Source of the DNA: a virus
UHGV virus genome: UHGV-0236300
Length of the DNA: 64,000 nt
Strand: one strand, 5' to 3'
The notes under the pieces were generated by a model that was not told the origin of the DNA, did not search any database, and worked only from the letters and a program-made list of their open reading frames with translations. The stretch's first letter is position 1; each line of letters begins with the position of its first letter. Shown here piece by piece: positions 32,858 through 56,940 of this stretch. Position numbers and translations under genes: made by a program.

Positions 32858-34063
32858 ATGATTTTCATCTACGAACATTTCAAAACTCGTAAAGAAGCAC
32901 GTGACCGCCGTGCAGAGCTTGAGAAGAAGGGTTTCACATGCGCTATTGAGAAAGGTAACACAACCTGGACACTGGCAGTAGGTGCCCCAGAGTTGTTCGA
33001 TCCTGACCGTGACAGCGTCTGCTACACCCGTGAGGATTTTGAAACCCGTGAAGAGGCCCGTTTATTTCGATATGGGCTGGAAGATAACGGTAAGTACGCC
33101 ATGATCTTAGACTTAGGCGAAGGTTCCGTTAAACGTTGGGGCGTGGTATATCCGCTGTGTGTTGTTCACGGTGTAGGGTTCACTGGGGTAGCAATCAAGT
33201 CAGAAGAACCTTTAGTAGAAGTCAAAGACCCGGTGCTGGAGGTGGTGAGCAGTGTGTCTCAGCAACAGACCCGAAGCATCGAGCCTTTGGTGGTTATTTG
33301 CGGGGAACTCCTCCAGATCACCTGCAACGAAGGTATTTTTGAAATTCGCCGCAGTGAAAGTGAGGAAGTTTACCAGAAAGTCTTCGACCATATCTCTGTT
33401 CAGGAATATGACGAGGCAATTGGTGAAATCCTTGTCTGGCTGGAACGCAAGAATGAGTTCACCACACTTGCAGACAACCTGATCATGAAAGATGGTAAGC
33501 TCTACTACTACGGTGTAGAGATGCGATCCACCATTGCAAAGAAAATTGAGAAAGATTATGCAGACGGAACACTGGATGACCGCTATGTGAAATTCCTCGT
33601 TCGCCTGCTACGCAATCCTTCTGCAAAATCTGTAAACATGCTCTACGATTTTATGCAGGCAAACGACATTCAGATTGCAGAAGATGGTCGAATCATTTGC
33701 TACAAAGGGGTTCAGTTTAACGGCGACAAGTGGGTGGATTGGCACAGTGGTAAAGTCCCACAATACCAGGGGGCTTTTGTATCCATGCCTCGTAACTTTG
33801 TAGAGGATGATCCGGAAGCTGCATGCTCTTATGGCCTGCACTGTGCCAGCAAAGAGTATGCAAAGAGCTACGGAACTGTGATGACGGTTATGGTTGACCC
33901 TGCTGATGTAGTTAGTGTACCTTACCGACACAACAGCGCCAAGTGCCGTGCATGCCGCTACGAAATCGTAGTAGCTCCAGAATCGCGCAAAGATGGCGAC
34001 CCAATTGAGTACGTGGTTGACCGCGACGGTAATACTATCGACATTATCTACGAGGAGGCGTAA
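32858..34063 (+). CDS. hypothetical protein
   Basis: ATG preceded by AAGGAG (track start 32822 overlaps upstream gene without RBS); Cys cluster CRACRYE near C-terminus. Confidence 0.6.
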   Translation: MIFIYEHFKTRKEARDRRAELEKKGFTCAIEKGNTTWTLAVGAPELFDPDRDSVCYTREDFETREEARLFRYGLEDNGKYAMILDLGEGSVKRWGVVYPLCVVHGVGFTGVAIKSEEPLVEVKDPVLEVVSSVSQQQTRSIEPLVVICGELLQITCNEGIFEIRRSESEEVYQKVFDHISVQEYDEAIGEILVWLERKNEFTTLADNLIMKDGKLYYYGVEMRSTIAKKIEKDYADGTLDDRYVKFLVRLLRNPSAKSVNMLYDFMQANDIQIAEDGRIICYKGVQFNGDKWVDWHSGKVPQYQGAFVSMPRNFVEDDPEAACSYGLHCASKEYAKSYGTVMTVMVDPADVVSVPYRHNSAKCRACRYEIVVAPESRKDGDPIEYVVDRDGNTIDIIYEEA

Positions 34064-35433
34064 TGGAAAAAGGGCAGTACGATGTAGGCACAGATGCTGC
34101 CCTTGTTGCAATCATGAGCGGTGAGAATGTCTTCGTAAGTGGACCTGGTGGAACCGGGAAGACATATCTTATCAACATGATCCAGTCCATGTATGGAGAC
34201 TCTTGCATAACGGTTGCCCCGACAGGGGTAGCCGCTTTAAACGTTAATGGAGCAACAGCGCACCGAACTTTCGATCTTGCCGCAGGTGTGAGCATGGAGT
34301 CAGACTGGACAGCAATAAGGGCAAAAACAGCAAAGCCTCTGAAAAGCAAGGCATTTACCATCCTGATTATCGATGAAATCTCTATGATCCGTGCTGACAA
34401 GTTCATAGAGATGGATAGAAAACTCCGCTTTCTTCGGAAAAATGACAAACCTTTCGGAGGCATTCAGGTGTTATTGTTTGGAGATTTCTACCAAGCACCT
34501 CCAGTTGTCTCTTCTATGGAGAAAGAAGCCTACTTCAACTTCTACCACACAGATCTGTGTTGCTATACAGAATCTTGGGAGGATCTTAATCTTCACAACA
34601 TAGCCTTGGTAGACCAGTTCCGTCAGGAATCTGTTCGCTTCGCCACAATGTTGAACTGTGTTCGTGAAGGTCGTCGCATAAAAGAGGTTGTAGCAGAGCT
34701 TAACACTCGTTGCTATCATGGTGGTGTCCCAACAGATGCCTTGACCATCTGTGCCACCAATAAGCAAGCAGAGGAGGTGAACAGACGTTTCTATGATGCC
34801 ATCAAGGCCCCAGAGAAGACCTACATTGGTAAAATGAAAGGTAAGTTCCCTTCCACACTACCTGTGGAGCAGGAAATGAGGCTGAAGATAGGGATGAAGG
34901 TTATGATAACCTCAAACGATGTTGACCCTACTCACAAAGTTCCGTATTATGTTAACGGGACACGTGCCACAGTGGTAAAATTCAAGACCAAATCCGTAGT
35001 AGTTGAGCTAGAAGACGGAACACAGGTTGAAATTGAGCCGAGATTGTGGGAGAATAACGAGTACAAACCTTCCCAGAGGTACAATATTGCCGAAAGGAAG
35101 ATGGAGAAGTTCATAGAGAGGGTTGTGATCGGGTCTTATGAGCAACTTCCTTTGAAATCTGGGTACGCAGTAACATCGCATAAAAGTCAAGGACTTACGT
35201 TAGATTGTTACAACCTAGACCTCGGAAAGAACGGAGCTTTCTCTCCCGGAATGACGTATGTTGCCTTGAGTCGGGTTAAGACGATACAAGGAATAAACTT
35301 GTTGCGTCCATTAAGAGAGGTGGATATTATTGTTGACCCGAGAGTCGTAGAGTTTTATAATACAACTTTCCCTGGCTTAGACGAGAAAGTCAGGAAAGAT
35401 TTTGAAACTAGAGCAGAAAAGGGGGACGTATGA
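34063..35433 (+). CDS. SF1 DNA helicase, RecD/Pif1/Dda-like
   Basis: Walker A GPGGTGKT, Walker B LIIDEISM, C-terminal TSHKSQGLT...YVALSRVK. Confidence 0.85.
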   Translation: MEKGQYDVGTDAALVAIMSGENVFVSGPGGTGKTYLINMIQSMYGDSCITVAPTGVAALNVNGATAHRTFDLAAGVSMESDWTAIRAKTAKPLKSKAFTILIIDEISMIRADKFIEMDRKLRFLRKNDKPFGGIQVLLFGDFYQAPPVVSSMEKEAYFNFYHTDLCCYTESWEDLNLHNIALVDQFRQESVRFATMLNCVREGRRIKEVVAELNTRCYHGGVPTDALTICATNKQAEEVNRRFYDAIKAPEKTYIGKMKGKFPSTLPVEQEMRLKIGMKVMITSNDVDPTHKVPYYVNGTRATVVKFKTKSVVVELEDGTQVEIEPRLWENNEYKPSQRYNIAERKMEKFIERVVIGSYEQLPLKSGYAVTSHKSQGLTLDCYNLDLGKNGAFSPGMTYVALSRVKTIQGINLLRPLREVDIIVDPRVVEFYNTTFPGLDEKVRKDFETRAEKGDV

Positions 35434-35771
35434 GTTTGTGGAGAAATATCGTTAACTACGTGTGTGGCAATCCGACTCCTGAAGAGAAGGATGTTGTGAT
35501 TCACGATTTTACTAAAAGATCTCGTGAAAAAGATCTACTGCTAACAAAGGTGACTGATAAAGATCCTGCAGTAGGGGACTGGGCAGGTTTTGCGTTTACA
35601 TCGGACAAATACACCTTTAACAAAGGTGACTACCTTGTTGTGGATTTTAACGAAGATATTGAGGGTGCTGAACCTTACTATCAAACCCTTATTGTTGCAG
35701 GGTGTGTTGATCTCTCTGCAGGCATGCACAGTTTGATTCTTTTTGAGCTTGACTCTGAAGACCTTGAGTAG
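35430..35771 (+). CDS. hypothetical protein
   Basis: ATGA overlap with helicase gene. Confidence 0.55.
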   Translation: MSLWRNIVNYVCGNPTPEEKDVVIHDFTKRSREKDLLLTKVTDKDPAVGDWAGFAFTSDKYTFNKGDYLVVDFNEDIEGAEPYYQTLIVAGCVDLSAGMHSLILFELDSEDLE

Positions 35772-35788
35772 TAAGATGTGAGTATAAA

Positions 35789-35806
35789 GGGGAGGCACTC
35801 CTCCCC
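35789..35806 (+). other. strong intergenic hairpin (GGGGAGG-CACT-CCTCCCC)
   Basis: Perfect 7-bp GC stem with tetraloop; no downstream T-run, so probably not a plus-strand intrinsic terminator. Confidence 0.5.
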
Positions 35807-35832
35807 ACAAAAACTAAGGAGAGCACCAAACG

Positions 35833-37176
35833 ATGAGTAAAACCAAATTAGAACTTACCTGGATAGGTAAGAACGAGCGCAAAAAGCTAGAGCCTCACAT
35901 TTTGTTAGAAGATTCGAGCAAGTCTTATTACGCCAGTAAAAAGGTGACCGAAAACGATATTTTTGATAATAAACTGATTTTTGGAGATAACTTACTGGCA
36001 TTGAAGGCACTAGAGCAAGAGTATGCAGGCAAAGTGAAGTGTGTTTACATAGACCCGCCATTCAATACCGGAAGGGATTTTGAGCACTACGATGATAGCC
36101 TGGAGCACTCCATTTGGCTGGGCTTAATGCGGGACAGATTAGAAATAATTCGTAATCTGCTAAGCGATGATGGAGTGATATTCGTTCACTTAGATGACTG
36201 CGAAATGGCTTATTTAAAAGTCTTGATGGACGAGATTTTTGGTCGTGCAAATCAGTTAAATACCATATCGATGACTACAAATTGCCCTTCAGGCTTTAAG
36301 GCAACAGGAACTACAGTTTTCTCCACAGCAAACTTTTTGCTTGTATATGCAAAAGATCGTACCAAGAAACCACTTAACAAAATCTATATACCTAAAGAGT
36401 ATGATACGGGATATAACAAATATCTATTAAACCCAGATGACCATTATAAAAGTTGGACGTGGTGCGGTATTGCCGATGCGTTTGCAAAGGCCAATGGCTA
36501 TAAAGATACAAAAGAAGCCAAGAAAAAACTGCCTGATACATTTGATGATGAATTAGCACAATTTGCAATTGATAATGCAGAACGTGTATTTCAATCCGTT
36601 GCAATTGGCGGTGGTGCCAAAATAAAGAGAAAAGAAACTATCGAGAAGTCAAAGAAAGATAGGGATAAGGTTTATGTACATCCAAATGAGGATGTCGAAG
36701 GCTTTTATATCGCAAATGGTAGGCAAATGGTCTTTTATTCCAATAGGCTTTTGGAAATTGACGGCAAGATGCAGCCTGCTGAACTAATAACTGATGTTTG
36801 GACTGACATTAGTTGGAATGGAATAGCAAATGAAGGCGGCGTTAGTTTCAAAAATGGAAAAAAGCCCGAAGCGCTTTTGAAGCGAATTTTCGAAATGTGT
36901 ACGCGAGAAGGAGATTTAGTCTTGGATTCATTCGGCGGTTCAGGAACTACTGCTGCCGTAGCTCACAAGATGAAAAGACGTTGGATCTCTGTCGAGTTAG
37001 GTGATCATTGTCATACCCATATCATCCCGCGCTTGCAAAAAGTGATCGATGGCAAAGATCAAAGTGGTATTTCTAAATCTGTAAACTGGCAAGGTGGCGG
37101 GGGCTTTCGCTATTACAAACTTGCCCCGAACTTAGTTATGAAAGATAAGCTTGACTCAGAAGAAGATTTAGAGTAA
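35833..37176 (+). CDS. DNA methyltransferase, N6-adenine/N4-cytosine class (DPPF motif)
   Basis: Motif IV VYIDPPFNTG; SAM-binding LDSFGGSGTTAAVA; RBS AAGGAGA. Confidence 0.85.
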   Translation: MSKTKLELTWIGKNERKKLEPHILLEDSSKSYYASKKVTENDIFDNKLIFGDNLLALKALEQEYAGKVKCVYIDPPFNTGRDFEHYDDSLEHSIWLGLMRDRLEIIRNLLSDDGVIFVHLDDCEMAYLKVLMDEIFGRANQLNTISMTTNCPSGFKATGTTVFSTANFLLVYAKDRTKKPLNKIYIPKEYDTGYNKYLLNPDDHYKSWTWCGIADAFAKANGYKDTKEAKKKLPDTFDDELAQFAIDNAERVFQSVAIGGGAKIKRKETIEKSKKDRDKVYVHPNEDVEGFYIANGRQMVFYSNRLLEIDGKMQPAELITDVWTDISWNGIANEGGVSFKNGKKPEALLKRIFEMCTREGDLVLDSFGGSGTTAAVAHKMKRRWISVELGDHCHTHIIPRLQKVIDGKDQSGISKSVNWQGGGGFRYYKLAPNLVMKDKLDSEEDLE

Positions 37177-37235
37177 TATTTAAAATATCTAAGGGTAGGT
37201 CTACTCTTCACACAAGATAAGGAGAACACCAAACG

Positions 37236-37478
37236 ATGAAGCGTTATAAACCATACACTTTTGAAATCGATTTCGAACTTGACGATATGCTCACTGTAGA
37301 AGCTCAGGCAGTTGTCCAGTTGCCAGATCCGGAGTGCCGTGATTCTGATGTTGATTATTATGGATTTAGACAGATTACTGATGTGCATGTTTACCACACA
37401 ACGGAGAAGAGGTGGATTTTCACCAGTTACCAAACGATCTGCGCCACTCGATTTACAAACGTGCAGCACGTGAACTAG
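37236..37478 (+). CDS. hypothetical protein
   Basis: 5' leader nearly identical to leader of methyltransferase gene. Confidence 0.5.
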   Translation: MKRYKPYTFEIDFELDDMLTVEAQAVVQLPDPECRDSDVDYYGFRQITDVHVYHTTEKRWIFTSYQTICATRFTNVQHVN

Positions 37479-37539
37479 AGTCCTATCTGGATGCAGCGAC
37501 GACAGCGGCAGCATTTGCTGAAGAAGTAGGAGGCTTCTA

Positions 37540-37938
37540 ATGATTACAGATGTGAAGATTATCCAATACCACCTAACCAAATTAGAAGATGCTGAAAAAG
37601 AGCTTGCAGAAGTTCTGAACAGTGGGTATACTTTACTGACATGCTCCTGCTCAGACACATACATTGTGTGGACACTTGCTAAGAAGGAAGAGCCTGCATG
37701 GATCTTGGTGCCAAACCCAGAGATCGCTAGTGAAGTTGATGGCTACTCCCAAGATAACGGCTTGCCAGAAGGTTGGGAAGTGTGGGAAGGTGGTGAAAAC
37801 CCTGCACCAGGTAAGTGGGTAAAATACAAACTACGTAGCGGTGCACAGTATGCTGACTACTCTGATGACCTAGACTGGAGTCACTCTTCACCAGGATCAT
37901 CTGCAAGTGCATATGATATTGTTGCTTTTCAGGAATAA
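37540..37938 (+). CDS. hypothetical protein
   Basis: RBS GGAGG; 132 aa. Confidence 0.55.
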   Translation: MITDVKIIQYHLTKLEDAEKELAEVLNSGYTLLTCSCSDTYIVWTLAKKEEPAWILVPNPEIASEVDGYSQDNGLPEGWEVWEGGENPAPGKWVKYKLRSGAQYADYSDDLDWSHSSPGSSASAYDIVAFQE

Positions 37939-37950
37939 GGAGAGGGTGTT

Positions 37951-38433
37951 ATGTCAGATTTTATGTGGAAGGTAGGTTATGCCTCTCCTGAAATGTGTGA
38001 GGCTTGTTTTGTGAAAATAGGCCGCGAGGATATTGACAAAGTGATCCTTAAGTTTCGTGATGTGTCTGTAATCGGCAACCGAGTTCTTAAGCACTTAAAG
38101 AATCTGAAGCTCACCAAGAAGAAGTTCTTCGGACTTTTCGAAGAGAAAGTTGATGCTTGGACCCATTGCATTCAGGAAGCTAAATCTCACTACAGTGCTA
38201 TCGTTACTCCGGAACGGGTAGCCAAGATGGAAGGATTCATCAACAGCACGGAGTTTGAGTGCCTAAAGGCTGCCCTTGATAGCTATCCAAAGTGCCTCAA
38301 ACACCTTGACAAGTATGTAGAAAAGGATGGTGAAATGTATCTCACCCTGGACGCATACTATGAGATGCAAGAAATTTTAAATTTAGATTTGACATTGGTA
38401 TCCACCGAGTATACAATAGGTATCCGGGTTTAA
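37951..38433 (+). CDS. hypothetical protein
   Basis: RBS AGGAGAGGG; terminator follows. Confidence 0.55.
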   Translation: MSDFMWKVGYASPEMCEACFVKIGREDIDKVILKFRDVSVIGNRVLKHLKNLKLTKKKFFGLFEEKVDAWTHCIQEAKSHYSAIVTPERVAKMEGFINSTEFECLKAALDSYPKCLKHLDKYVEKDGEMYLTLDAYYEMQEILNLDLTLVSTEYTIGIRV

Positions 38434-38439
38434 CACTAT

Positions 38440-38468
38440 GCCCTGCCCGAAAGGGTGGGGCTTTTTGC
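38440..38468 (+). terminator. rho-independent terminator
   Basis: GCCCTGCCC-GAAA-GGGTGGGGC hairpin plus T-run; near-identical copy at 49441. Confidence 0.7.
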
Positions 38469-38484
38469 ATTAGGAGACAGCAAA

Positions 38485-39249
38485 TTGAAATTTATCTACA
38501 AAGAACACTACCACAAAGGTGTCGTGTGGAGTCTATTTGACGGGTCTGGTGGTGCAGTTATTGACTGGGCAAAAGCTGGGTACCTGTGCCTGTGCTTTAA
38601 TGCAGAAGGTGCTGACCACGGTAGTTATGCAGAGGTGATAACCGATCATCCTAACATTCACTATGTGGATTATTGGATTGATCCATGGTTCCCTCAAGAA
38701 ACTTTTTGCATGTATCCAGCTCCAGACTTTATTCTTGCATTTCCTCCGTGCACGCATTTAGCAGTATCCGGAGCTGCACACTTTAAGAAAAAGCTGGCTA
38801 AGGACCCACTGATCCAAATTAATGCTGTGAAAGATGCTCGGGTTGCAGAAGAGTTGGGAGAGATTTATGATTGCCCGTGGCATGTAGAGAACCCTGTAGG
38901 AGTTATGTCAACACTGTGGCGAAAACCTGATTACCGTTTTCATCCTTCGGATTATGGTGGGTATCTACCAGAGGACGATGTAAACCCATGGTTTCCTGAA
39001 TTTATAGCTCCACGTGATGCCTACCCAAAAATAACTTGCGGTTGGATAGGCAATGGATTTATAATCCCCGCCACAAAACCTGTCCCGCAAATAGTTGATG
39101 TGGTTAGTGGTTATTCCATGCAACACGCTAAGCTAGGTGGAAAGAGTGCAAGGACGAAGATGATTCGAAGCCTTACACCACGTGGCTGGGCAAGAGCTGT
39201 ATTCTTAGCAAACGAGCCTGCAGTAAGGAGAAGAATTAATGGGCAGTAA
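38485..39249 (+). CDS. putative C5-cytosine DNA methyltransferase-like protein
   Basis: Motif I LFDGSGG, PC-type motif FPPCTH, ENV-like HVENPVG; TTG start 8 nt after AGGAG (track GTG 38455 lies inside terminator hairpin). Confidence 0.45.
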   Translation: MKFIYKEHYHKGVVWSLFDGSGGAVIDWAKAGYLCLCFNAEGADHGSYAEVITDHPNIHYVDYWIDPWFPQETFCMYPAPDFILAFPPCTHLAVSGAAHFKKKLAKDPLIQINAVKDARVAEELGEIYDCPWHVENPVGVMSTLWRKPDYRFHPSDYGGYLPEDDVNPWFPEFIAPRDAYPKITCGWIGNGFIIPATKPVPQIVDVVSGYSMQHAKLGGKSARTKMIRSLTPRGWARAVFLANEPAVRRRINGQ

Positions 39250-41317
39250 ATTCATGGCATCTGCATACAACCGTTTCGGTGAGCCAAACCCGAAAGCAAC
39301 TAAGTATAAAAGTGGGGGAAGTGTGAAACGAGACTATCGTGATGAAAAAGAAGTTGAAACTGTAGAGACTGTTTTAGAAAATACTAAAATTGTCCCTGTT
39401 CCACAACAAAATATTGGACTGATGGCTGCACAATATTTTGGTGTACGATCATCGCTATCCCAAGAGGATGGTGTAACTGTTACTGCCACCTACTTTCCGT
39501 ATTATGACCGCTACGGTAATCTATCTGGCTTTAAAAAGCGGGACTGGACAATCCCTAAAGAGCAAAGGGGCCATTTCTCGGTTGTTGGCATAGTAAAGGC
39601 CAACTCCCAGATGTTTGGTCAAAAGCTGTGTGCATCCTCCAACAACCGCAAGCAGATTAACGTTTGTGAGGGGGAAGGAGATGTTATTGCAGCGTGGCAG
39701 GCTGCATATCAGGTACAAGTAAAAGGAATTCTCACCAATACTAAAGCCCCGGCGAAGGTGAAGCAGTGGGCTAAAGAAGTCCAGGATGGGATTGATGCAG
39801 TTATCAACGGCGGTGATCTGGCAGGAAAACCATGCCTGCCTTTTGTCGGAATTAACTGCGGGTGTGCAAACGCCGTAGACACTTTTGCGAACAATGAGAA
39901 ATTTATCCGTAGCTACGGAACAGTAGTCCTTGCAATGGACAACGATGCAGCTAACGAGGTAGAGAAGCAAAAACACGTTATCAAAGGTGTTGAAGCTACG
40001 CATAATATCGCAGCATTTTTGATGGCTGACAACGTTTACCACGTGGAATACCCAGGTGAGGTAAACGACCCTGATGGTGTAAAAGATATTCGTGACATGC
40101 TGAAGGCTAAAAAGCTGGAAGATATTGTCAACATGTTCCGTCACCCAGTCAAATATGTGCCTGATGCTGTATCTGATTTAGAAGACTTCTCCATTGAATC
40201 TCTTCGTAAGAAGACTTCCAATGGCGTGGATATCAGTGCAGAGTTCCCTAAACTGCAGAAGATGCTGAAAGGACTCCACAAAGGCACCTTGATGATGCTG
40301 ACAGGCCCGTCTGGCGGTGGTAAAACAACTGTAGCCAAGAAGCTGGAACATTGCATTGCAAGATACTTGATGGACCCAACATGCCCTAAAGCTGATGATT
40401 ATGAAGAGGATGATCGCCTGTGCCTGATTCACCTTGAAGAGGATCCTGAGGAAGCAATCAACTCTCTGTACGCTAACCAGCTGGGGTTTGATGTTAAAGA
40501 GTTTGTTGAAGACCCCAGTCAGTTCCTGACCGATCAGGAGCACGCTGAGATTCATCAATCTTGGGCCAAGGCCGGAAAAATCAAAGTGTTCAAGCATTTC
40601 GGCTCCATCCCTGTAGATGAGCTGATCACTAAGCTTAAACAAATGGTGTGCCTGTATCACTGCCGTTACATTGTGCTGGATCACTTGTCTATGGTGATTT
40701 CAGGGCTTAATGTTAAGGATGAGCGTAAAGAGCTTGACATGGCTATGACTCAACTAGCCGCGTTCTGTAAGCAGTTTAATGTGTTTATCTTGGTGATTGC
40801 TCACCTGAAGCGCACAGAGATTGTACCTCCGAAGGATAAGGATGGAAATCCGTTACCTTTCTGGTACCCTGTACGAAAAGAGAACCTTCGCGGTAGTGCC
40901 GGATTGGAGCAACTTAGCTGGGTGGTTGTCGGGGTAGAGGCAGAGGAGATGGTGGATCGTTCCCGTGGGCGTGTCCGGCTGGTAGGTCTTAAAAACCGCC
41001 CAGCAAAAACCTTAGGTATTGCGGACACTCTAGTTATGGATCCCCACACAGGCAAGTTCCACGATGCCAGCAATTGGTATTGGGATAAAGAGATGCAGAT
41101 GTTTACAGACGGGGAAGGTGGAGAGGTTGTTTGGAGACCTCAAGCTATGTTTGAGGATCAGGAGCATGCAGTTGTAGAAACACCTGTGGGCAAGGTTGTG
41201 GCTGATAAGGTTATAACTCCTGCTGTTAACCCTGTTGACACACAGGAAGATCTTCAGTATGATGATCCGTCCTCTAACCACGTTCCTGGTTTTGAAGACG
41301 ACGAAACACCTTTTTAA
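39239..41317 (+). CDS. bifunctional primase-helicase (TOPRIM plus DnaB-like helicase, T7 gp4-like)
   Basis: TOPRIM-like EGEGD and VLAMDNDAANE; Walker A LTGPSGGGKTT; acidic C-terminal tail FEDDETPF. Confidence 0.85.
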   Translation: MGSKFMASAYNRFGEPNPKATKYKSGGSVKRDYRDEKEVETVETVLENTKIVPVPQQNIGLMAAQYFGVRSSLSQEDGVTVTATYFPYYDRYGNLSGFKKRDWTIPKEQRGHFSVVGIVKANSQMFGQKLCASSNNRKQINVCEGEGDVIAAWQAAYQVQVKGILTNTKAPAKVKQWAKEVQDGIDAVINGGDLAGKPCLPFVGINCGCANAVDTFANNEKFIRSYGTVVLAMDNDAANEVEKQKHVIKGVEATHNIAAFLMADNVYHVEYPGEVNDPDGVKDIRDMLKAKKLEDIVNMFRHPVKYVPDAVSDLEDFSIESLRKKTSNGVDISAEFPKLQKMLKGLHKGTLMMLTGPSGGGKTTVAKKLEHCIARYLMDPTCPKADDYEEDDRLCLIHLEEDPEEAINSLYANQLGFDVKEFVEDPSQFLTDQEHAEIHQSWAKAGKIKVFKHFGSIPVDELITKLKQMVCLYHCRYIVLDHLSMVISGLNVKDERKELDMAMTQLAAFCKQFNVFILVIAHLKRTEIVPPKDKDGNPLPFWYPVRKENLRGSAGLEQLSWVVVGVEAEEMVDRSRGRVRLVGLKNRPAKTLGIADTLVMDPHTGKFHDASNWYWDKEMQMFTDGEGGEVVWRPQAMFEDQEHAVVETPVGKVVADKVITPAVNPVDTQEDLQYDDPSSNHVPGFEDDETPF

Positions 41318-49904: not shown

Positions 49905-50000
49905 CACAGGTTGTAAGGTGTGCAATTATAACCTTGTAGAGCTGGAGGATGTGATGAACGAAGAAAACTGGGATGTGTAACTAACAGGAGGCCACTGCCC

Positions 50001-50198
50001 ATGATTTATCGAATCCGTGTGAGAGAAGATGCACCAGGTTGTTACTTTGACTGGCGTGGGTGGTGGTTTCTCCACCCAATGGATGGACTCACAGATAGAA
50101 TGCTGGATGCTGCCCTTTACACAGATACCGACATAGAGTATAATCTTTACTTGAAAGATGGTATCGATAACGGCCTGTTTGAAGCAATTCCTGCGTAA
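50001..50198 (+). CDS. hypothetical small protein
   Basis: RBS CAGGAGG. Confidence 0.5.
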   Translation: MIYRIRVREDAPGCYFDWRGWWFLHPMDGLTDRMLDAALYTDTDIEYNLYLKDGIDNGLFEAIPA

Positions 50199-50263
50199 GA
50201 GAATGTGATCGCCATGTTTTATGATCTTCCTGTAGCACCACCTATTGATCCTGGAGAACTACG

Positions 50264-50689
50264 ATGATTTATGAAATGCCAAAACTGATTCGTGACGATG
50301 CACGAAACGCCCACACCTTTATTATGGGCAAGCGCATGGATATTATTTGTCACAAAGACTTCTGGGAAGGGAGCTACTTCACAGAATATTTTGGAAAAAT
50401 GGATGATGGCCTACTGATCCAGTTTTACACCGATGCGGAAAACAACATTAGTTGGGAGTTCGAGACCGAAGATATCCATAAACTTTTCACCTTCCTTGGT
50501 ATTAAGATTAAGGCCAAGTTTGAAGAGGGAGAGTGCGACGATTGTGGATTTTATGAGGTAACAGATTTCTATCTTCCGAGCGGTAAAAACCTTTACTATG
50601 AAAGCCACTTCGGTAACTCCAATATGCCACAGTGCTGGACTGAGTTTTTTGAAATTGTGGAAGAGGAGCTGGAATATCGTGATTATTGA
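50264..50689 (+). CDS. hypothetical protein, translationally coupled to macro-domain gene
   Basis: RBS GGAGAA; stop overlaps GTG start of next gene. Confidence 0.55.
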   Translation: MIYEMPKLIRDDARNAHTFIMGKRMDIICHKDFWEGSYFTEYFGKMDDGLLIQFYTDAENNISWEFETEDIHKLFTFLGIKIKAKFEEGECDDCGFYEVTDFYLPSGKNLYYESHFGNSNMPQCWTEFFEIVEEELEYRDY

Positions 50690-51137
50690 TACTGTAGAGG
50701 GAGATTTAATCTCCCTTTTTAAGAGCGGTGCTGGTCACCTGATCCACGGTTGTAACTGCTTCCACACAATGGGTAAGGGTGTAGCAAAACAGATTGCCCG
50801 TGAGTTCCCTCAAGCATTGGAAGCTGATAAAATGACTATGCACGGTTGCCTAAGTAAACTGGGCGCGTTCTCCCGCTGGGAGCACTTATCTCCGAGAGGT
50901 ATTGTCTACGGAATAAATCTGTATACTCAGTTCTACCCAGGGCCTAATGCTGAATATTTCTCAATACTGAAAGGATTTGAGCGAGTCAATGAAGTATTTG
51001 AGGGGTCGATTTTACCATTCTACATCCCTAAGATCGGGTGCGGCATAGGCGGTTTGAAGTGGGAACATGTAGAGGACATTATTAACCTTGCCACTTTTGA
51101 TATAGATATTATCGTGGTGGAGTACAAAGAGTGTTGA
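50679..51137 (+). CDS. macro-domain protein (Poa1p-like ADP-ribose processing family)
   Basis: Motif LIHGCNCFHTMGKGVAKQIAREFP resembles Poa1p-type macro domains as I recall them; GTG start 10 nt after GAGGAG. Confidence 0.5.
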   Translation: MIIDTVEGDLISLFKSGAGHLIHGCNCFHTMGKGVAKQIAREFPQALEADKMTMHGCLSKLGAFSRWEHLSPRGIVYGINLYTQFYPGPNAEYFSILKGFERVNEVFEGSILPFYIPKIGCGIGGLKWEHVEDIINLATFDIDIIVVEYKEC

Positions 51138-51162
51138 CAGCTATATTTTAAGGTGGTATAGT
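51134..51162 (+). promoter_or_regulatory. sigma70-like promoter
   Basis: TTGACA-17-TATAGT. Confidence 0.55.
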
Positions 51163-51191
51163 CACCACAACGATTAAGACAGGGGAGCACT

Positions 51192-51386
51192 ATGGAGACT
51201 AAAATCTTAATTCTAGCTGTGATAGATACAACAGAAGGAGCCATGTTTGAATCTGCAGGAGGGTATTTCTACCTGCCCTACGGAAAAAGAACTTCCGAGC
51301 CGAGTAAAGATTCAATCCTCAAAGTGTTCCCGTGTGCTTTCTGGCTGGAGATTCTGGTAGAAGATTGCAGAGGCTTGGGGAGATAA
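51192..51386 (+). CDS. hypothetical small protein
   Basis: RBS AGGGGAG. Confidence 0.5.
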   Translation: METKILILAVIDTTEGAMFESAGGYFYLPYGKRTSEPSKDSILKVFPCAFWLEILVEDCRGLGR

Positions 51387-51388
51387 TT

Positions 51389-51583
51389 ATGAGAAACAAG
51401 AAAGAGCTTTACTCTGGCGAGTGGATAAACGATCAACAGGTAGGAGAGGTAACCTGCTTCCGTTGCTTTACTCGGTACAATCTTAAAACTGCACCAAAAA
51501 GTGTTCCAAAGACTGACGGTTATTACATAAAAGAACCTCATTGCCCGAAGTGTAAATGCCGAGTATACTGGAGTAACCTGTAA
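51389..51583 (+). CDS. small zinc-ribbon protein
   Basis: ATG after GGGGAG; CFRC...CPKCKC. Confidence 0.5.
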   Translation: MRNKKELYSGEWINDQQVGEVTCFRCFTRYNLKTAPKSVPKTDGYYIKEPHCPKCKCRVYWSNL

Positions 51584-51587
51584 AAGG

Positions 51588-51615
51588 TTGACATCTGAAA
51601 ACTGCGGTATATAAT
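51588..51615 (+). promoter_or_regulatory. sigma70-like promoter
   Basis: TTGACA-16-TATAAT. Confidence 0.55.
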
Positions 51616-51646
51616 ATAAACATAAACTAGCAGAGAGGGATAAATT

Positions 51647-51838
51647 ATGGTAATTTTTAATCGAGACGGTATCATAGTTAGACAGCACCCATTCCTTGAA
51701 TACTATCAGGTTGAGCAATGGTGTTACGGTGATTGCAGTCATTCCTATGGGCAAAGTTGGGGATATCGCACAGTTTTTGAATCAACAGATCTTGATAAAG
51801 TAAAACAGAAAGTCTTAGAACTTCTTAACAACAAGTGA
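51647..51838 (+). CDS. hypothetical small protein
   Basis: RBS GAGAGGGA. Confidence 0.5.
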   Translation: MVIFNRDGIIVRQHPFLEYYQVEQWCYGDCSHSYGQSWGYRTVFESTDLDKVKQKVLELLNNK

Positions 51839-51848
51839 GTATTATACT

Positions 51849-52181
51849 ATGGTAACATTAGAAAGACGTAAAGCTATCGCCGCCACACTGGCAGACATCT
51901 TTTGGGATTGCAATTTAAAAGATACCCGATATTGCGGCGCATCTGTAGATGTATTATTCCCACGGCCCACCATTGTTGCAATGGGTAGCCTGCTGGGTGT
52001 AGTTGCAGGTGCATGGGATAAGGAAGGTGGTTTCTATATCTGGCAGCCTGACTACGGGACCTGGAAAGAAGTAAGGGGTGCTGATGACTTTGGGCCTGCA
52101 GTTGCTAAGATGGATGGCTGGGAAATTTATGTTGGAAACGACATGAAGCTGAAAGGTGAGATTGTTTACTGGTTACCTTAA
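51849..52181 (+). CDS. hypothetical protein
   Basis: 110-aa ORF in co-directional array. Confidence 0.5.
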   Translation: MVTLERRKAIAATLADIFWDCNLKDTRYCGASVDVLFPRPTIVAMGSLLGVVAGAWDKEGGFYIWQPDYGTWKEVRGADDFGPAVAKMDGWEIYVGNDMKLKGEIVYWLP

Positions 52182-52201
52182 TAAAACGCAGGAGATAAAG
52201 T

Positions 52202-52447
52202 ATGAACAAAGGGTGGACATTTGTAGACGGCGTTAAAAACATGCCTCTAGGAAAGTATATTGTAGCCATGGCAGATGAGAATGGCAAGGTGGATTTCGGA
52301 GTTTGCGAGATTGTTCTTGCAGGATCTGGTGACTATGCCCACAAAACTGGGATAATTAACGGTCATTTCTACTTTGATTACAACCCTGTTGTGGCGTATA
52401 TGGCTATGCCAGAGTTAGAGCTCCCAAAGGAGGGTGCAGATGTTTAA
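52202..52447 (+). CDS. hypothetical protein
   Basis: RBS AGGAGA. Confidence 0.5.
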   Translation: MNKGWTFVDGVKNMPLGKYIVAMADENGKVDFGVCEIVLAGSGDYAHKTGIINGHFYFDYNPVVAYMAMPELELPKEGADV

Positions 52448-52637
52448 GCTTAAATCTGCATGGAACATTGCTGTGGGTGATGAGATCCGCATCCCTGGTG
52501 GGAAGACCGTTATGAAGATATCTCGTATTGAATACGAAGGCGACCGTGTATTCCACATCTTTGCAGAAGATGGTCGGGAAATTTATGTACAAGCGGGCTC
52601 TCACATCTATATCCGTAAGAAAGGGGATGACAAATGA
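52434..52637 (+). CDS. hypothetical protein
   Basis: RBS AAGGAGGG; short overlap with upstream gene. Confidence 0.5.
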   Translation: MQMFKLKSAWNIAVGDEIRIPGGKTVMKISRIEYEGDRVFHIFAEDGREIYVQAGSHIYIRKKGDDK

Positions 52638-52963
52638 CAGAGATCATTATTTCAACTGCAGGGTATGTATTCCTGACAATCATTGCTCTGACCATTTTGG
52701 TGGCGGTATATGGATTTGTTATTCTACCTATTCTTGAGACAATTAGTTTGTGTCGGTGTTGGAGAAAGGCTTACGGTCCACAGCCGTGGAGGGACTGGCC
52801 CCACCTGGTTCGCATAGCGTTCTCTTATGCTTATGATCACGCCAGCAGTGCATGCATAACCGGGTATCACGCTCACAATTGGAACTGGGAGGGGTTGGGT
52901 AGATGGAATGTTATAAAGACCATACCTCTACGTATGCACAAGCCTAAAAACAAAGACAGTTGA
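52634..52963 (+). CDS. hypothetical membrane protein
   Basis: ATGA overlap; hydrophobic N-terminal segment. Confidence 0.5.
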   Translation: MTEIIISTAGYVFLTIIALTILVAVYGFVILPILETISLCRCWRKAYGPQPWRDWPHLVRIAFSYAYDHASSACITGYHAHNWNWEGLGRWNVIKTIPLRMHKPKNKDS

Positions 52964-53008
52964 TACTTGAAAATCCCTGGCACATCAAGTATAAGGAGGA
53001 TTTCTAAA

Positions 53009-53116
53009 ATGGACTTCCTCCTTTTGATATTTTACCTGGCCGGATATTTTAAAATTCTTAGAAAATCAGAAAATGGATCGAAAACTAAAATGGATTTTTC
53101 AAGACAGGCGCGATAA
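53009..53116 (+). CDS. small hydrophobic peptide (35 aa)
   Basis: Not in ORF track; ATG 7 nt after AAGGAGGA; RBS lies in GGAGGA...TCCTCC inverted repeat. Confidence 0.35.
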   Translation: MDFLLLIFYLAGYFKILRKSENGSKTKMDFSRQAR

Positions 53117-53274
53117 GATGTGCTGCTCATTCTATCGTTCGCACCGTACTTTAAGTTACTATTCCAGATTTTCCGCACATACTCTCACCCTTCTACCAGA
53201 ACTTTCCCAGCTTACCTTTGACCCTTTATAACAATAAACCCATTATTCTCAGTAGGTTTTGATACATCTCTCTC

Positions 53275-53440
53275 AGTACTCGATCTGTTTTTCGTTTCAA
53301 AGATTGAATTTTCTGAAAATTTTTCTCGATAAATTTCTTAGTACTCGATCTGTTTTTCGTTTTCTGAATCAGATTTTCTGGAAATCGTTCCGGAGCTCGA
53401 CCTGAAATTTTTGGGGACGAAATCGATTTTTCGTTTTCGG
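53275..53440. repeat. direct repeats (23-bp iterons, each with a GATC site) in non-coding DNA
   Basis: AGTACTCGATCTGTTTTTCGTTT at 53275 and 53340; degenerate copies at 53392-53440. Confidence 0.6.
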
Positions 53441-53565
53441 AAATGGATTTTTAAAATTTGTATATGGAAATACTTAAGGAGGTATTATTTTATATAGAAT
53501 TGTCACGGTAGGTAATTAGCATGCTAACTAAATTTATGAAATGCGAAAAGTTCTCATTTAGAATT

Positions 53566-53584
53566 TTGAATGATAATCATTCTC
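53566..53584 (+). promoter_or_regulatory. Fur-box-like operator (copy 1)
   Basis: TTGAATGATAATCATTCTC matches 16 of 19 positions of Fur consensus GATAATGATAATCATTATC. Confidence 0.45.
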
Positions 53585-53698
53585 GTTTGCAGAATAACGG
53601 GCACCCCCGGTGATTGTCTCCCGGCCCCTGTTGCCCCGGCTTGTTATTATAGTATCACACAGGACAAAGAAAGCAAGGATTTTTTGCATAAATTTTTA

Positions 53699-53720
53699 AA
53701 TGATAATGATAACCGTTCTC
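53699..53720 (+). promoter_or_regulatory. Fur-box-like operator (copy 2)
   Basis: GATAATGATAACCGTTCTC matches 16 of 19 Fur consensus positions. Confidence 0.4.
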
Positions 53721-53941
53721 ATTTTATGCAGCGCCCATCCCCGGTGGTTGTCTCCCCCGTCACCGGTGCCTGCCGTCCTTTCGATAGGTATATTGTGCCA
53801 CCTGGCGGGGCCGCTGTCAACACTTTTCAAAAAAATTCTAACCTGATGCGCTAACCGTTGCAACCTGGCGGGGCCAGCCTGGCAGGGCTATGCTATAGGG
53901 TAGGCAACAACTGAAGAGGAGGTACAAAAATAAAAGGTAAT

Positions 53942-54103
53942 ATGATCCCTGGAAATGTAGCGATTAATGACGCTGAGGCTATCGCCCTGGTTGAAAAGGC
54001 TATGGCGGGAGCGTTGGAACATAAAGAAGAGTACGAAAAAATGATGGTTAACCTGGCAGGGGCGGCGGCTGGAGAATTCTGCCCAAAAAATAATTCTAAC
54101 TAA
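53942..54103 (+). CDS. small hypothetical protein (53 aa)
   Basis: Not in ORF track; ATG after GAAGAGGAGG. Confidence 0.45.
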   Translation: MIPGNVAINDAEAIALVEKAMAGALEHKEEYEKMMVNLAGAAAGEFCPKNNSN

Positions 54104-54186
54104 TGGTTGACAGCTCGGATAGTTCTGTTATTCTTATCCTCGCAAGGTGAACAACACCACACTAATTAACAGAGAGGATAAAAATC

Positions 54187-54384
54187 ATGAACGCCTACGG
54201 AATTAAAGTACGTCGCAACACTCGCCAGGCCGTCACCGATCAAATGATTTGCCAGGTGGACGTAACCATCAACAACGGGCAAGGCCTTTATAAATTCCGT
54301 CGCGGTCAGAGCTACACCCGGCAACAGCTTAATCGTTGCGCCCTGACAAAAGGCCAGATCAACCACTGGTTTAATAAAAAATAA
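54187..54384 (+). CDS. hypothetical small basic protein
   Basis: RBS GAGAGGA. Confidence 0.5.
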   Translation: MNAYGIKVRRNTRQAVTDQMICQVDVTINNGQGLYKFRRGQSYTRQQLNRCALTKGQINHWFNKK

Positions 54385-54387
54385 GTA

Positions 54388-54416
54388 TTGACATACAGTC
54401 TGACACCAAATACACT
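54388..54416 (+). promoter_or_regulatory. sigma70-like promoter
   Basis: TTGACA-17-TACACT. Confidence 0.45.
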
Positions 54417-54448
54417 AAAAGCACAAAAGACACTAAGAGGATAAAATC

Positions 54449-54847
54449 ATGAAAACCACTACCTTTAATTTTGATAATGCGGACTTTTCTTTTTCTGATG
54501 TCAAGAACTGCCGCCGTGATCGTGGATTTTACAAGGCCTATAATCTGGTGGGCCTGGACGATGACAATAATTTGCACGAAGTAGCTGAGATCCGGTATTA
54601 TGCCGCCGCCAGCGGGAACACTCAATACTGCGTTTTTTGGATTCACGACAACAAGAACAATAAGTACGGTTATACTGGCGGGAAGGCGAGCGGTCACGGT
54701 TACGATAAAGCTAATGCAGCACTTGAGAGCGCATTAAATGCTATGGGGATCACTGCCAACGGCTGGATCTATGAAGAAGAGTTTTTGTCGGCACTTGCTA
54801 ACCACCTGGGCTATAAAAAGCACATTGTAACATGCGCCCACGAATAA
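54449..54847 (+). CDS. hypothetical protein
   Basis: RBS AAGAGGA. Confidence 0.55.
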   Translation: MKTTTFNFDNADFSFSDVKNCRRDRGFYKAYNLVGLDDDNNLHEVAEIRYYAAASGNTQYCVFWIHDNKNNKYGYTGGKASGHGYDKANAALESALNAMGITANGWIYEEEFLSALANHLGYKKHIVTCAHE

Positions 54848-54853
54848 AAATTG

Positions 54854-54881
54854 TTGACACGCTGCAAAATTCAAGTAAACT
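54854..54881 (+). promoter_or_regulatory. sigma70-like promoter
   Basis: TTGACA-16-TAAACT. Confidence 0.45.
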
Positions 54882-54929
54882 AATCACAAAAGGCGGGAAT
54901 GTTTCCCGCCAACACAAAGGAAAAAGATC

Positions 54930-55334
54930 ATGAATAAGAACGTACGCCGCATCATGAATGAACTGGCAAACGATGAAAAAATTATTGATATGCATTTGGT
55001 GAACATTTGCCGCCGTTGTGTAACATATAACAACCGCGCCGCAAAAGCGCGTGAGATGAACGCAAAAGGCACCTTAAAGCCCTTCCAGGTGGTGGTAAAG
55101 GCCATCAAAGATGTAACTAATACGGCAAACCAGGTACAGGGGAACACCAACGAGAGTACCGATATTGATCCGGCTTACATCATGAAACGGATCCGGACCT
55201 GCAAGAACAAAGAGCAAGTGTATAACGTCATAGACTGGTTGGATTCTATGGGCGACGTGGTGTACAATAGGTTTTCTGCAGCTATCGAGATCCAGCTTGA
55301 CAGGTTGGACGGGAAAGTACTGAAAACTTATTAA
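54930..55334 (+). CDS. hypothetical protein
   Basis: RBS AAGGAAA. Confidence 0.55.
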   Translation: MNKNVRRIMNELANDEKIIDMHLVNICRRCVTYNNRAAKAREMNAKGTLKPFQVVVKAIKDVTNTANQVQGNTNESTDIDPAYIMKRIRTCKNKEQVYNVIDWLDSMGDVVYNRFSAAIEIQLDRLDGKVLKTY

Positions 55335-55335
55335 G

Positions 55336-55381
55336 TTTATTTTTAGATGGCCTTGACTCCAGGGCCATCAATAAAGTAAAC
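55336..55381 (+). repeat. conserved intergenic cassette copy 1 (T-run plus GATGGCC...GGCCATC hairpin with embedded TTGACT)
   Basis: 46-bp sequence identical to 55957-56002. Confidence 0.7.
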
Positions 55382-55414
55382 TAGTCTCAACTAAGCGAAA
55401 AAGGGGGCTTTAAG

Positions 55415-55534
55415 ATGAGCACTACACGCCAATACACAAAGGTAACTATTATCGTTTGCGTTGTCGGTTACATCCTGGCGCAAATGTTAATGAGTAGCGC
55501 CAACAGTTTTGCAAAATTTTTCTTAAATTTTTAA
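55415..55534 (+). CDS. small hydrophobic peptide (39 aa)
   Basis: Not in ORF track; ATG after AAGGGGG. Confidence 0.35.
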   Translation: MSTTRQYTKVTIIVCVVGYILAQMLMSSANSFAKFFLNF

Positions 55535-55562
55535 TTGACAAGCTAACCCAAATCAGTATACT
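55535..55562 (+). promoter_or_regulatory. sigma70-like promoter followed by conserved ACGTAAACGGGAAAACTTCCC element
   Basis: TTGACA-16-TATACT; downstream 22-bp element 55567-55588 duplicated at 57426-57447. Confidence 0.6.
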
Positions 55563-55613
55563 TAAGCACGTAAACGGGAAAACTTCCCAGAACACACAAA
55601 AGGAGAAAACACC

Positions 55614-55946
55614 ATGACTACTATGACCGCCGCAGAAAAAGCTATTCAGGTTGCCGCACTGAAAAAACAGATCGCAGACCTTGAGAACAAGATCGATAAC
55701 TTTGAAATCGACGAGGACAAGTACGACGAAAACTATGATGAATGGTTAGACGAGGTCTACGGCGAAATCATGATCGGAAACATTTCTTTTCTTCCGTCGC
55801 GTATCCTCAAGGAGCTAGATCCTATCGCTTACCGCTGCGGATTTAGCGACTACATCGACAGCCTGGATATTGAGGACGATGAAGAGTACCAAGAATTGCA
55901 AACAGAGTTGGAAGAAGCAAAAGAAGAGCTTGCAGAACTGGAATAA
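55614..55946 (+). CDS. hypothetical acidic coiled-coil protein
   Basis: RBS AAGGAGAA. Confidence 0.55.
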   Translation: MTTMTAAEKAIQVAALKKQIADLENKIDNFEIDEDKYDENYDEWLDEVYGEIMIGNISFLPSRILKELDPIAYRCGFSDYIDSLDIEDDEEYQELQTELEEAKEELAELE

Positions 55947-55956
55947 AACGAGTAAA

Positions 55957-56002
55957 TTTATTTTTAGATGGCCTTGACTCCAGGGCCATCAATAAAGTAA
56001 AC
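55957..56002 (+). repeat. conserved intergenic cassette copy 2
   Basis: Identical to 55336-55381. Confidence 0.7.
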
Positions 56003-56041
56003 TTTACACTGTTAACACTGAACTAATGAGGAGTTAAAACC

Positions 56042-56287
56042 ATGGCAGCACTAATCACCAAATATTATGCGCCTACCAACACCAAAAGCGCCCGTATCAT
56101 GGTAAAAGGCTTCGGACGTAAAAAGGTCTACACCTGGGATTATGCCTTAGATATGGAAGACAACTACACCAACGCAATGACCGATTTTATTAATGATCTG
56201 AATAAACAGATCTTAACCGACTACAAAGTGACCGATATTGCCTACGTCGGGGAAGGCGGGATCTGTTTTGTGGGCATTGTGAAATAG
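56042..56287 (+). CDS. hypothetical protein
   Basis: RBS GAGGAG. Confidence 0.5.
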   Translation: MAALITKYYAPTNTKSARIMVKGFGRKKVYTWDYALDMEDNYTNAMTDFINDLNKQILTDYKVTDIAYVGEGGICFVGIVK

Positions 56288-56330
56288 TTATTTTTTCGGT
56301 GGTCCTGGCTGCAGGGCCATCTATAAAGAT
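56288..56330 (+). repeat. conserved intergenic cassette copy 3 (diverged)
   Basis: TTATTTTTTCGGTGGTCCTGGCTGCAGGGCCATCTATAAAG, variant of the 55336 and 55957 cassette. Confidence 0.55.
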
Positions 56331-56362
56331 AATTTATTAACACCATGAAAGGAGAAAGTAAC

Positions 56363-56903: not shown

Positions 56904-56911
56904 CAACCAAC

Positions 56912-56940
56912 GCCCCGCCATTGTGCGGGGCTTTTTATTT
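56912..56940 (+). terminator. rho-independent terminator
   Basis: GCCCCGC-CATTGT-GCGGGGC hairpin plus TTTTTATTT. Confidence 0.75.

Follow-up and report, generated by a model that had tools for sequence, protein, structure and literature searches.

The locus and its allelic forms

The window, a 64,000-nucleotide (nt) stretch of the virus genome UHGV-0236300, belongs to an rV5-like Vequintavirus, and its part 34000-39300 is 90-98% identical to 117 phage records. The subject of this study is a methyltransferase gene in that part, here called M, together with the direct repeat that brackets it. The genes are arranged in the order rIIB, PIF1-like helicase, U, M, D, two small genes, a Dcm-like gene and a primase-helicase. 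The 117 related records are those of rV5-like Escherichia phages (genus Vequintavirus), and the record counts given below are slightly inflated by 16 GenBank records, MG0656xx, that are probably mislabelled coliphages. The latter are titled "Campylobacter phage", are at least 90% identical to Escherichia coli Vequintaviruses across the locus and include forms both with and without M; one record seen is marked UNVERIFIED.

Three layouts of the locus were defined from the 24 loci that were read. Allele B, which is that of the window, is found in 11 records and has an M of 447 amino acids followed by a long right-hand copy of the repeat. Allele A, found in about 75 records including rV5, Murica and FFH2, has an M of 441 amino acids whose stop codon is separated from D by only 13 nt, and it has no long right-hand copy. 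Allele E is empty and has a single module in an intergenic region of 60 nt. For a synthetic empty site composed of U, one leader and D (646 nt), 29 of the 117 records gave an unbroken match of 93-97% identity. The comparison for presence or absence that the initial annotation proposed therefore has a positive outcome, as these 29 relatives are without M exactly at the repeat and keep one copy of it. M is present at an identity of at least 90% in 87 records, and the next-best phage matches are approximately 40% identical and come from Campylobacter phages.

Polarization of the alleles by other genera of the Vequintavirinae failed, as homologues of U are confined to Vequintavirus and those of D are weakly similar beyond it. 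Two divergent metagenomic vequintaviruses were used in place of outgroup genera. One of these, L028, is of the B type and is only 87.5% identical to all known vequintaviruses, while the other, L031, is of the empty type, with a U that is 85% identical.

The direct repeat

The initial annotation described two nearly identical leaders, and its coordinates and sequences are exact. The first leader, CACAAAAACTAAGGAGAGCACCAAACGATG at 35806-35835, carries the ATG of the 447-residue methyltransferase open reading frame (ORF; 35833-37176), and the second, CACAAGATAAGGAGAACACCAAACGATG at 37211-37238, carries the ATG of gene D. The GC hairpin next to the first leader, GGGGAGG-CACT-CCTCCCC, was also found at 35789-35806, and the 64-nt stretch around it has a predicted fold of -14.6 kcal/mol. 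The methyltransferase and the two leaders were correctly recognized and the ORF does lie between direct repeats, but the repeat is about three times longer than claimed. What had been missed is that the repeat extends into both coding regions and that the gene is a truncated host restriction-modification (RM) gene.

The repeat (family D10) spans approximately 92 base pairs (bp), 35746-35835 against 37148-37238, with a global identity of 74%; in 300 shuffles the identity averaged 49% and never exceeded 57%. Perfect blocks shared by the left copy (L) and the right copy (R) measure 13, 10 and 8 nt, the longest being 13 nt. In a BLAST search of 2.3 Gb of phage DNA, R was also matched to copies in other phages, whether left or single ones, with 75-77% identity and E-values from 1e-6 to 2e-5. 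Each copy begins with the end of a coding region and its stop codon, followed by a sigma70-like element, the hairpin and a Shine-Dalgarno leader (Table 1). The C-terminus of U, ..ELDSEDLE and the stop, recurs as the C-terminus of the methyltransferase, ..KLDSEEDLE and the stop.

The L module has a -35/-10-like pair followed, after about 11 nt, by the G-run/C-run hairpin and an A/C-rich Shine-Dalgarno leader. This layout of promoter, hairpin and A/C-rich leader is shared by the promoters at 54854, 55535 and 57394 of the window, which score 10-11 of 12. The hexamers of R are constant across all B-type phages and L028, whereas the spacer between them is variable. The L028 orthologue of R still has an intact hairpin. 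The possibility that the hairpin is an intrinsic terminator on the + strand was rejected, because there is no T-run downstream of it and the scan calls a terminator on the - strand only, where no gene ends. No Rfam family was found in 35300-37700 at E <=1. The single module of phage ECP32 (L001 ~2945-2960) has a run of 12-13 A just 5' of the hairpin, where all other phages have 3 A; this is either a homopolymer sequencing artefact or a true expansion.

Could the two leaders be alike merely as strong translation-initiation regions, M being an old resident of the phage? Both copies do contain a Shine-Dalgarno sequence and a start codon, and other gene leaders in the window are also A/C-rich. Such convergence by chance is nevertheless almost certainly not the explanation. 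The shared core AAGGAGARCACCAAACGATG, with up to 3 mismatches, occurs in 64 kb just at the two leaders, where 0.01 occurrences are expected; because the core is limited to these two sites, the leaders do not represent the generic ribosome-binding consensus of the phage. Moreover, the homology spans 92 nt including coding sequence and hairpin, M is missing from 29 relatives, and no phage copy outside Vequintavirus is more than about 41% identical.

Table 1. Positions of the features of the methyltransferase locus in the window
Feature	Position	Strand	Basis or remark
Gene U, 113-aa (amino acid) hypothetical protein	35430..35771	+	ORF list; last 26 nt open the left repeat
Left repeat L: U 3' tail, stop, promoter-like element, GC hairpin, Shine-Dalgarno leader, methyltransferase ATG	35746..35835	+	
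Promoter-like TTGACT-17-TAAGAT in L	35749-35777	+	
GC hairpin of L, intact	35789-35806		sequence, fold
Segment homologous to E. coli chromosomal type III mod, 94.3-94.5% nt identity	35820..37153 (to 37162 in some strains)	+	megablast
Methyltransferase gene M, 447 aa, beta-class N6-adenine, type III Mod family, without C-terminal domain	35833..37176	+	
Right repeat R: U-tail copy, stop, promoter-like element, decayed hairpin, leader, gene D ATG	37148..37238	+	
Promoter-like TTGACT-17-TAATAT in R	37151-37179	+	
Last codons of M (..DSEEDLE and stop), from the 3' end of a U gene, not mod	37154..37176	+	
Decayed hairpin copy in R	37193-37209		sequence
Gene D, 100-aa hypothetical protein in relatives	37236..37538	+	ORF list, tblastn

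The methyltransferase and its parent gene

Residues 68-394 of the M protein match PF01555 (N6_N4_Mtase) with an E-value of 8.2e-43. Read in the translation, the motifs appear in the order YIDPPFNTG (motif IV), which precedes the target recognition domain (TRD), and DSFGGSGTT (motif I), which follows it. The best PADLOC model is MTase_III PDLC03636 (E 7e-205), covering positions 2-445 of 575.

The parent gene is a type III mod that was found by megablast in 25 of 5,426 complete E. coli genomes (~0.5%) and is chromosomal in all of them. Its homology to the window ends at 37153 or 37162 and goes no further. The protein that it encodes has 567-568 amino acids and is the best bacterial match, 95% identical to the phage protein. 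Bacterial homologues are 56-77% identical over 96-99% of the phage protein and mostly have 570-600 amino acids. At the position of the U-derived tail of M the host gene continues with GLEVINKEYN..., and the tails of U in L028 and L031, GAAGAAGATTTGCAGTAA, are closer to the tail of M than is the tail of the window's own U. To judge from these alignments, M corresponds to codons 1 to ~440 of the chromosomal type III mod of E. coli, truncated at the 3' end. The earlier reading is supported in so far as M is an accessory gene that was gained by horizontal transfer.

In E. coli the parent mod, whose MTase_III match is full length, adjoins a REase_III gene (PADLOC model PDLC03648, E 9e-191). M of the phage has no res neighbour, the next gene being that of the 100-residue hypothetical protein. 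The mod-res pair of the two strains examined (2014C-3011 and SMN152SH1), at 6012-10478 of L026, adjoins setC in a composite defence island at L026/L027 1129-10478, in which the order is a mad1-like helix-turn-helix gene, a DrmD-like SNF2 protein (E 1e-208), AbiD, a hypothetical gene, a methyltransferase, a 912-residue helicase and remnants of ardA and an integrase.

That E. coli acquired mod, or its 5' part, from a phage is very improbable. The identity of 94.5% and the integrase and ardA remnants in the island would accommodate such a direction. However, the 568-residue form is the norm of the family, with dozens of full-length bacterial homologues of 570-600 residues that are 56-75% identical to the E. 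coli Mod and align with it along the whole length. Since the long form is also paired with res, and since the end of the phage form comes from phage gene U, transfer from host to phage is the direction indicated.

The AlphaFold model of the E. coli Mod has a mean pLDDT (predicted local distance difference test) of 78 and a confident alpha/beta domain at approximately residues 443-540. Its top structural matches are the type III Mods 6K0W and 4ZCF, with E-values of about 1e-19 and full-length alignment. In EcoP15I the C-terminal domain of one Mod protomer makes extensive contacts with Res, and dimerization occurs via the N-terminal and methyltransferase domains (PMC4490356). Judged by position, the phage M would keep the N-terminal domain, the methyltransferase domain and the TRD and would lack the domain that contacts Res. 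The homologue in Campylobacter phage CPt10, considered for a C-terminal comparison, is a pseudogene and was not usable.

Another shortened copy of the same mod family, with 444 amino acids and 81% protein identity, lies at 5001-6335 of a 38.7-kb Logan contig (SRR16894903; L029) and is cut at the boundary between the methyltransferase and C-terminal domains. It is situated amid nrdD, nrdG, phoH, clpP and dam-like genes, and outside the methylase the contig has no megablast match to known phages. It is apparently an independent capture of a Mod without its C-terminal domain.

Junctions and proposed mechanism of capture

The segment between the repeats encodes only the methyltransferase; no transposase, endonuclease, integrase or inverted terminal repeats were found in it, and a duplication of 92 bp is unlike the target duplications of transposons. 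The junctions themselves can be read by comparing the host gene with the divergent phages. The E. coli mod is preceded by ..ACACAAGATAAGAGCACAGAAATGATGAGC, and L031 has ..AAGGAGAGCACCAAATGATGAAACGT before D. Host and L031 have GAGCAC(AG/C)AAATGATGA in common at the left junction, matching at 15 of 17 positions. In all phages the M gene starts with the second ATG of the host gene, which comes immediately behind a leader of the phage type. The left join would have formed at the 15-of-17 match, between GAGCACAGAAATGATGA in the start region of the host mod and GAGCACC-AAATGATGA in the ancestral D leader of the phage.

At the right junction of allele B the homology to mod stops at AAAGATAAG(C/T)TTG and is followed by a copy of the 3' end of U, the hairpin and the leader. 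The mod sequence AAGTTTGGCTTGGAAG matches the L028 U end GAGCTTGGCTCTGAAG at 12 of 16 positions. It may be at this match that mod codons ~435-440 were joined to the 3' end of U, which has the latter sequence in divergent relatives. On the phage map such a right join falls within U and hence upstream of the left join, which is in the leader; for this reason the segment between them would have been duplicated, giving rise to the ~92-bp repeat. By the same event M would have been cut from the rest of mod and supplied with a U-derived stop, and D would have obtained a regulatory module of its own. That the repeat is a by-product of gene insertion is supported. The repeat thus has the appearance of a scar of the capture, that is, an old duplication and not a pair of active recombination sites.

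Allele A, the common layout, would have arisen with a different right join, situated 19 nt further into mod and leading straight onto the leader of D. Past the point where mod breaks off in B, allele A has a further 19 nt of it (TGATCAATAAAGAGTACAA), which are followed by the last ~13 nt of the D leader; this leader remnant reads TCAAATGATG, as against the ancestral CCAAATGATG. The stop codon is created by an 11-nt deletion within the retained mod sequence. When the deleted bases are restored from E. coli, M runs in frame into D, ..KEYNQMMKRYKP... Because A keeps host sequence that is absent from B, it cannot derive from B. The possibility that A is a deletion derivative of B was rejected, as what had looked like a remnant leader in A is mostly mod coding sequence absent in B. 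B may instead have come from an A-like precursor by a further short-homology exchange with a genome of the empty type, or A and B may be separate captures.

Polymorphism among related phages

Empty alleles are interspersed with alleles A and B in all three clades of both flank trees. Neighbours in the left-flank tree include YN3 (B) with YP-6 (E) and ECP26 (B) with ECP32 (E); rV5 (A) and HeinrichReichert (E) are neighbours in both trees. The 15 empty alleles that were read all have a module of the left type over its whole length, with no L/R hybrid among them. They fall into two leader classes, AAGGA-AGCACTAAACG and CTGAGGAGAGCACCAAACG, which fits a spread of the alleles by recombination in the flanking genes. 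No empty allele with an R-like module was found by BLAST, in which R-like sequence of at least 88% identity occurs only in the 11 B-type records. M is a standing presence/absence polymorphism, present in approximately 75% and absent in approximately 25%, and these distributions suggest that it is reassorted mainly by homologous recombination in the flanks, namely in U and the helicase gene to the left and in D to the right.

The leader of R differs among the B-type phages. Its last 12 nt read CACCAAACGATG in the window and in ECP26, while the seven other B-type phages read have CACCGAAT(G/A)ATG there, the right copy containing CACCGAATGATG or CACCGAATAATG in these seven. The near-identity of the last 20 nt of R is common to the window and ECP26, its close relative. 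Over these 12 nt and the ~150 nt at the start of D, the two genomes have 1-3 differences to the empty ECP32 and HMD-6 and 6-8 to other B-type phages. This pattern points to a crossover that ended inside the leader in the window and ECP26, and it would be because of this crossover that the two leaders look nearly identical in this window.

The initial annotation suggested that the gene is gained or lost by recombination between the repeats. In a cassette that is active in this way, like the mini-circles of promoter-early stem-loop (PeSL) cassettes in T4-type phages, both copies would be working substrates of ongoing excision and re-insertion, and the empty alleles would be repeat-by-repeat deletions. 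Precisely one copy of the repeat is kept at empty sites, and the exchange in the window and ECP26 ended inside the leader, as might be expected of such a cassette. The process also operates in these phages, since the window holds another cassette, at 55332-56003, which is bracketed by 51-nt repeats of 98% identity and is present in some close relatives and absent from others. As an account of today's movement of M it is nevertheless unlikely and is not supported. The identity of L and R is only 74%, and their perfect blocks are as short as 13, 10 and 8 nt. Each of the 15 empty alleles that were read is of the L type throughout, which would limit the crossover to the last 5-13 nt. Empty alleles are as frequent among, and interspersed with, A-type relatives, which have no long R, and the two discrete empty leader classes fit few origins followed by allele spread. 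Exchange in the flanks is the simplest account, and none of the observations requires excision at the repeats.

Age and number of captures

Comparison of M with the E. coli mod gave a synonymous divergence (dS) of 0.19-0.25 and a ratio of nonsynonymous to synonymous divergence (dN/dS) of 0.07-0.13, and because of this low ratio M is taken to be under purifying selection in the phage. The divergence between L and R, 26%, is in the same range as dS from one phage lineage of M to another (0.18-0.50). The nearest relative of R, at 76-81% identity, is the single module of L031, and R keeps the GAAGAAGATTT tail and AAATGATG start of that module, both of which have changed in modern left or single copies. 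An orthologue of R is present in the divergent L028. Given the orthologous R in L028, the closeness of R to the L031 module and the L/R divergence, the duplication appears to be old.

In the tree of M the lineages radiate like a star from the E. coli sequence, and A, B and L028 have hardly any substitutions in common: 1 substitution is common to all three and 3 to A and B. It is therefore possible, though not favoured, that A and B stem from separate acquisitions of the same host mod at the same leader. The star-like tree with its few shared substitutions is as two captures would predict, and the right junctions of A and B differ, such that a deletion alone would not turn either of them into the other. 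The independently truncated copy in the unrelated contig L029 adds a further instance. On the other hand, A, B and L028 have the same left junction, with a single ATG right after the phage leader, and a single capture requires one illegitimate event fewer. Recombination among phages could also have erased the shared history.

Comparison with known systems

Like the orphan methyltransferases known from phages, M is solitary, has no nuclease partner, is carried by a lytic phage, is closely related to a methylase of a host RM system, is under purifying selection and is accessory. It differs from them in having a donor that is traceable at 94.5% DNA identity to a defence island of its own host species, in junctions that can be read base by base, and in being a type III Mod without the C-terminal domain. 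The order of domains, which is N-terminal domain, methyltransferase (DPPF), TRD and methyltransferase (FGGSGTT), is that of the type III Mods of EcoP15I (4ZCF) and Helicobacter pylori (6K0W). Unlike these, the phage protein ends at the boundary between the methyltransferase and C-terminal domains and has no res partner.

The repeat module has some likeness to the PeSL cassettes, which undergo modular shuffling in T4-type phages (Arbiol et al. 2010, PMC2839356; Comeau et al. 2014, PMC4122927). In one subclass of PeSL the stem-loop is downstream of the -10 element (PMC2839356). Both are modules of about 90-100 bp that contain a sigma70-like element and a GGGG...CCCC stem-loop and flank a variable gene. 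Where this gene is missing, relatives keep one module, as is the case for ORFan192 of RB49 compared with phi1. However, the window phage is not T4-type, and its module occurs only twice in 64 kb and is not a dispersed family, other promoter-hairpin families at 53-58 kb being different in sequence. Furthermore, the promoter part overlaps the coding end of U and scores weakly, and with their divergence of 26% the copies resemble a duplication that happened once.

The cassette at 55332-56003 is a closer analogue of PeSL than the methyltransferase locus. It consists of a 110-residue ORF (55614-55946) with its own promoter-hairpin (55535-55600), situated between 51-nt repeats at 55332-55382 and 55953-56003. 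The repeats form a hairpin GATGGCC..GGCCATC with a -35 element TTGACT in the loop. A synthetic deletion junction matches ECP26, the closest relative, as well as ECP32 and magaca in one piece of about 700 nt, and the insert of approximately 620 nt is present in FV3, Murica, rV5_ev147 and others. This cassette is the better candidate for active PeSL-like gain and loss. The surrounding early region, 50000-58600, contains 64 sigma70-like promoters where 32 are expected and several families of promoter and hairpin repeats, among them 53266-53451 and 55535/57394, the latter with 80% identity over 66 nt. With its small ORFs the region has the look of a hyperplastic one.

Possible function

Orphan methylases of phages are known for self-methylation that counters restriction. 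By analogy with their behaviour, and given the purifying selection on the gene, it is likely that M methylates phage DNA at the cognate sites of the host type III system, so that the progeny evade that system. Loss of the C-terminal domain would leave a pure methylase.

The loss of the Res-binding domain might itself have been selected. M may then form heterodimers with the host Mod or compete for its sites, acting as a dominant-negative inhibitor in addition to being a methylase. M is 95% identical to the host Mod and would keep the dimerization surfaces of the N-terminal and methyltransferase domains. The copy in L029 is truncated at the same domain boundary, and the A and B alleles are possibly separate captures, both of which are consistent with such selection. 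Nevertheless, such a selected inhibitory role is improbable. If the captures were indeed separate, host defence methylases would have been captured repeatedly via chance homology of translation-start regions with phage leaders.

Overall interpretation

The locus is probably best explained by the capture of a truncated E. coli type III mod at the U-D junction, with the repeat as the scar of that capture, self-methylation as the function of the gene, and recombination in the flanks as the process that distributes it among the phages.

Several observations weigh against parts of this explanation. One capture followed by remodelling and two captures at the same left site would be indistinguishable in the sequences, and the empty alleles may be either ancestral or secondary losses. 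The hexamer pairs TTGACT-17-TAAGAT of L and TTGACT-17-TAATAT of R score 9 of 12 each, which is the chance level for the region, so that the promoter is putative. The R leader of B-type phages (CACACAAGATAAG...) has 12 consecutive bases in common with the native leader of the E. coli mod, which would not be expected from the simple model of capture. This native leader (L026 ~5990-6020) shares the 12 bases (ACACAAGATAAG) with the R leader before D (window 37210-37238) and not with the L leader before M; at the same site R of L028 reads ACACAAACTAAG. The match may be a coincidence, or it may have been left by more complicated events, for example by a circular intermediate or by an exchange of leaders at the ATG. 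Finally, phenotyping of the BASEL collection found the Vequintavirinae to be very sensitive to the RM systems tested (PMC8594841). Because of this general sensitivity any protection by M would be narrow, and the sensitivity fits a methylase that shields only against its own parent system, present in ~0.5% of complete E. coli genomes.

Neighbouring genes

Gene U has no Pfam match, and its homologues found by tblastn are confined to 116 Vequintavirus records, all at an identity of at least 90%. Outside Vequintavirus, gene D has only weak tblastn matches (34-40%) in Erwinia and Cronobacter phages. In the window, D contains a 2-nt CA insertion at ~37396-37399, reading TTTACCACACAAC where 15 of 15 relatives compared read TTTACCACAAC; the resulting frameshift leaves an ORF of 80 instead of 100 amino acids. 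Either D is truly inactivated or the short CA repeat was misread in sequencing. Further downstream, the 264-residue product of 38455-39249 has been annotated by several depositors as a Dcm-like C5 cytosine methyltransferase and has no Pfam match at E <=0.01. Phage HeinrichReichert has a homing-endonuclease gene between the Dcm-like gene and the primase-helicase, which the window lacks.

Implications

The literature searched contained no prior description of the origin or polymorphism of the rV5 methylase. Host-derived phage methylases and the shuffling of modules at gene junctions are both already known. What is new here is the identified donor, the junctions at base level, the type III Mod without a C-terminal domain and the polymorphism in the population. 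The locus would be a rare case in which the transfer of a defence gene from host to phage can be followed at base resolution, the donor, both homologies, the duplication and two repairs of the 3' junction all being readable. It also accounts for the annotation of the rV5 methylase as matching only the amino terminus of bacterial methylases.

Assuming that M protects against its parent system, Vequintaviruses with and without M, including phages for therapy and typing that are otherwise nearly identical, are predicted to differ in host range on the ~0.5% of E. coli genomes (25 of 5,426) that have this type III system. The pairs ECP26/ECP32 and Murica/LL12 provide natural, isogenic-like material for such a comparison. 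Short-homology capture at regulatory junction modules, known in T4-type phages, would also shape the genomes of Vequintavirus.

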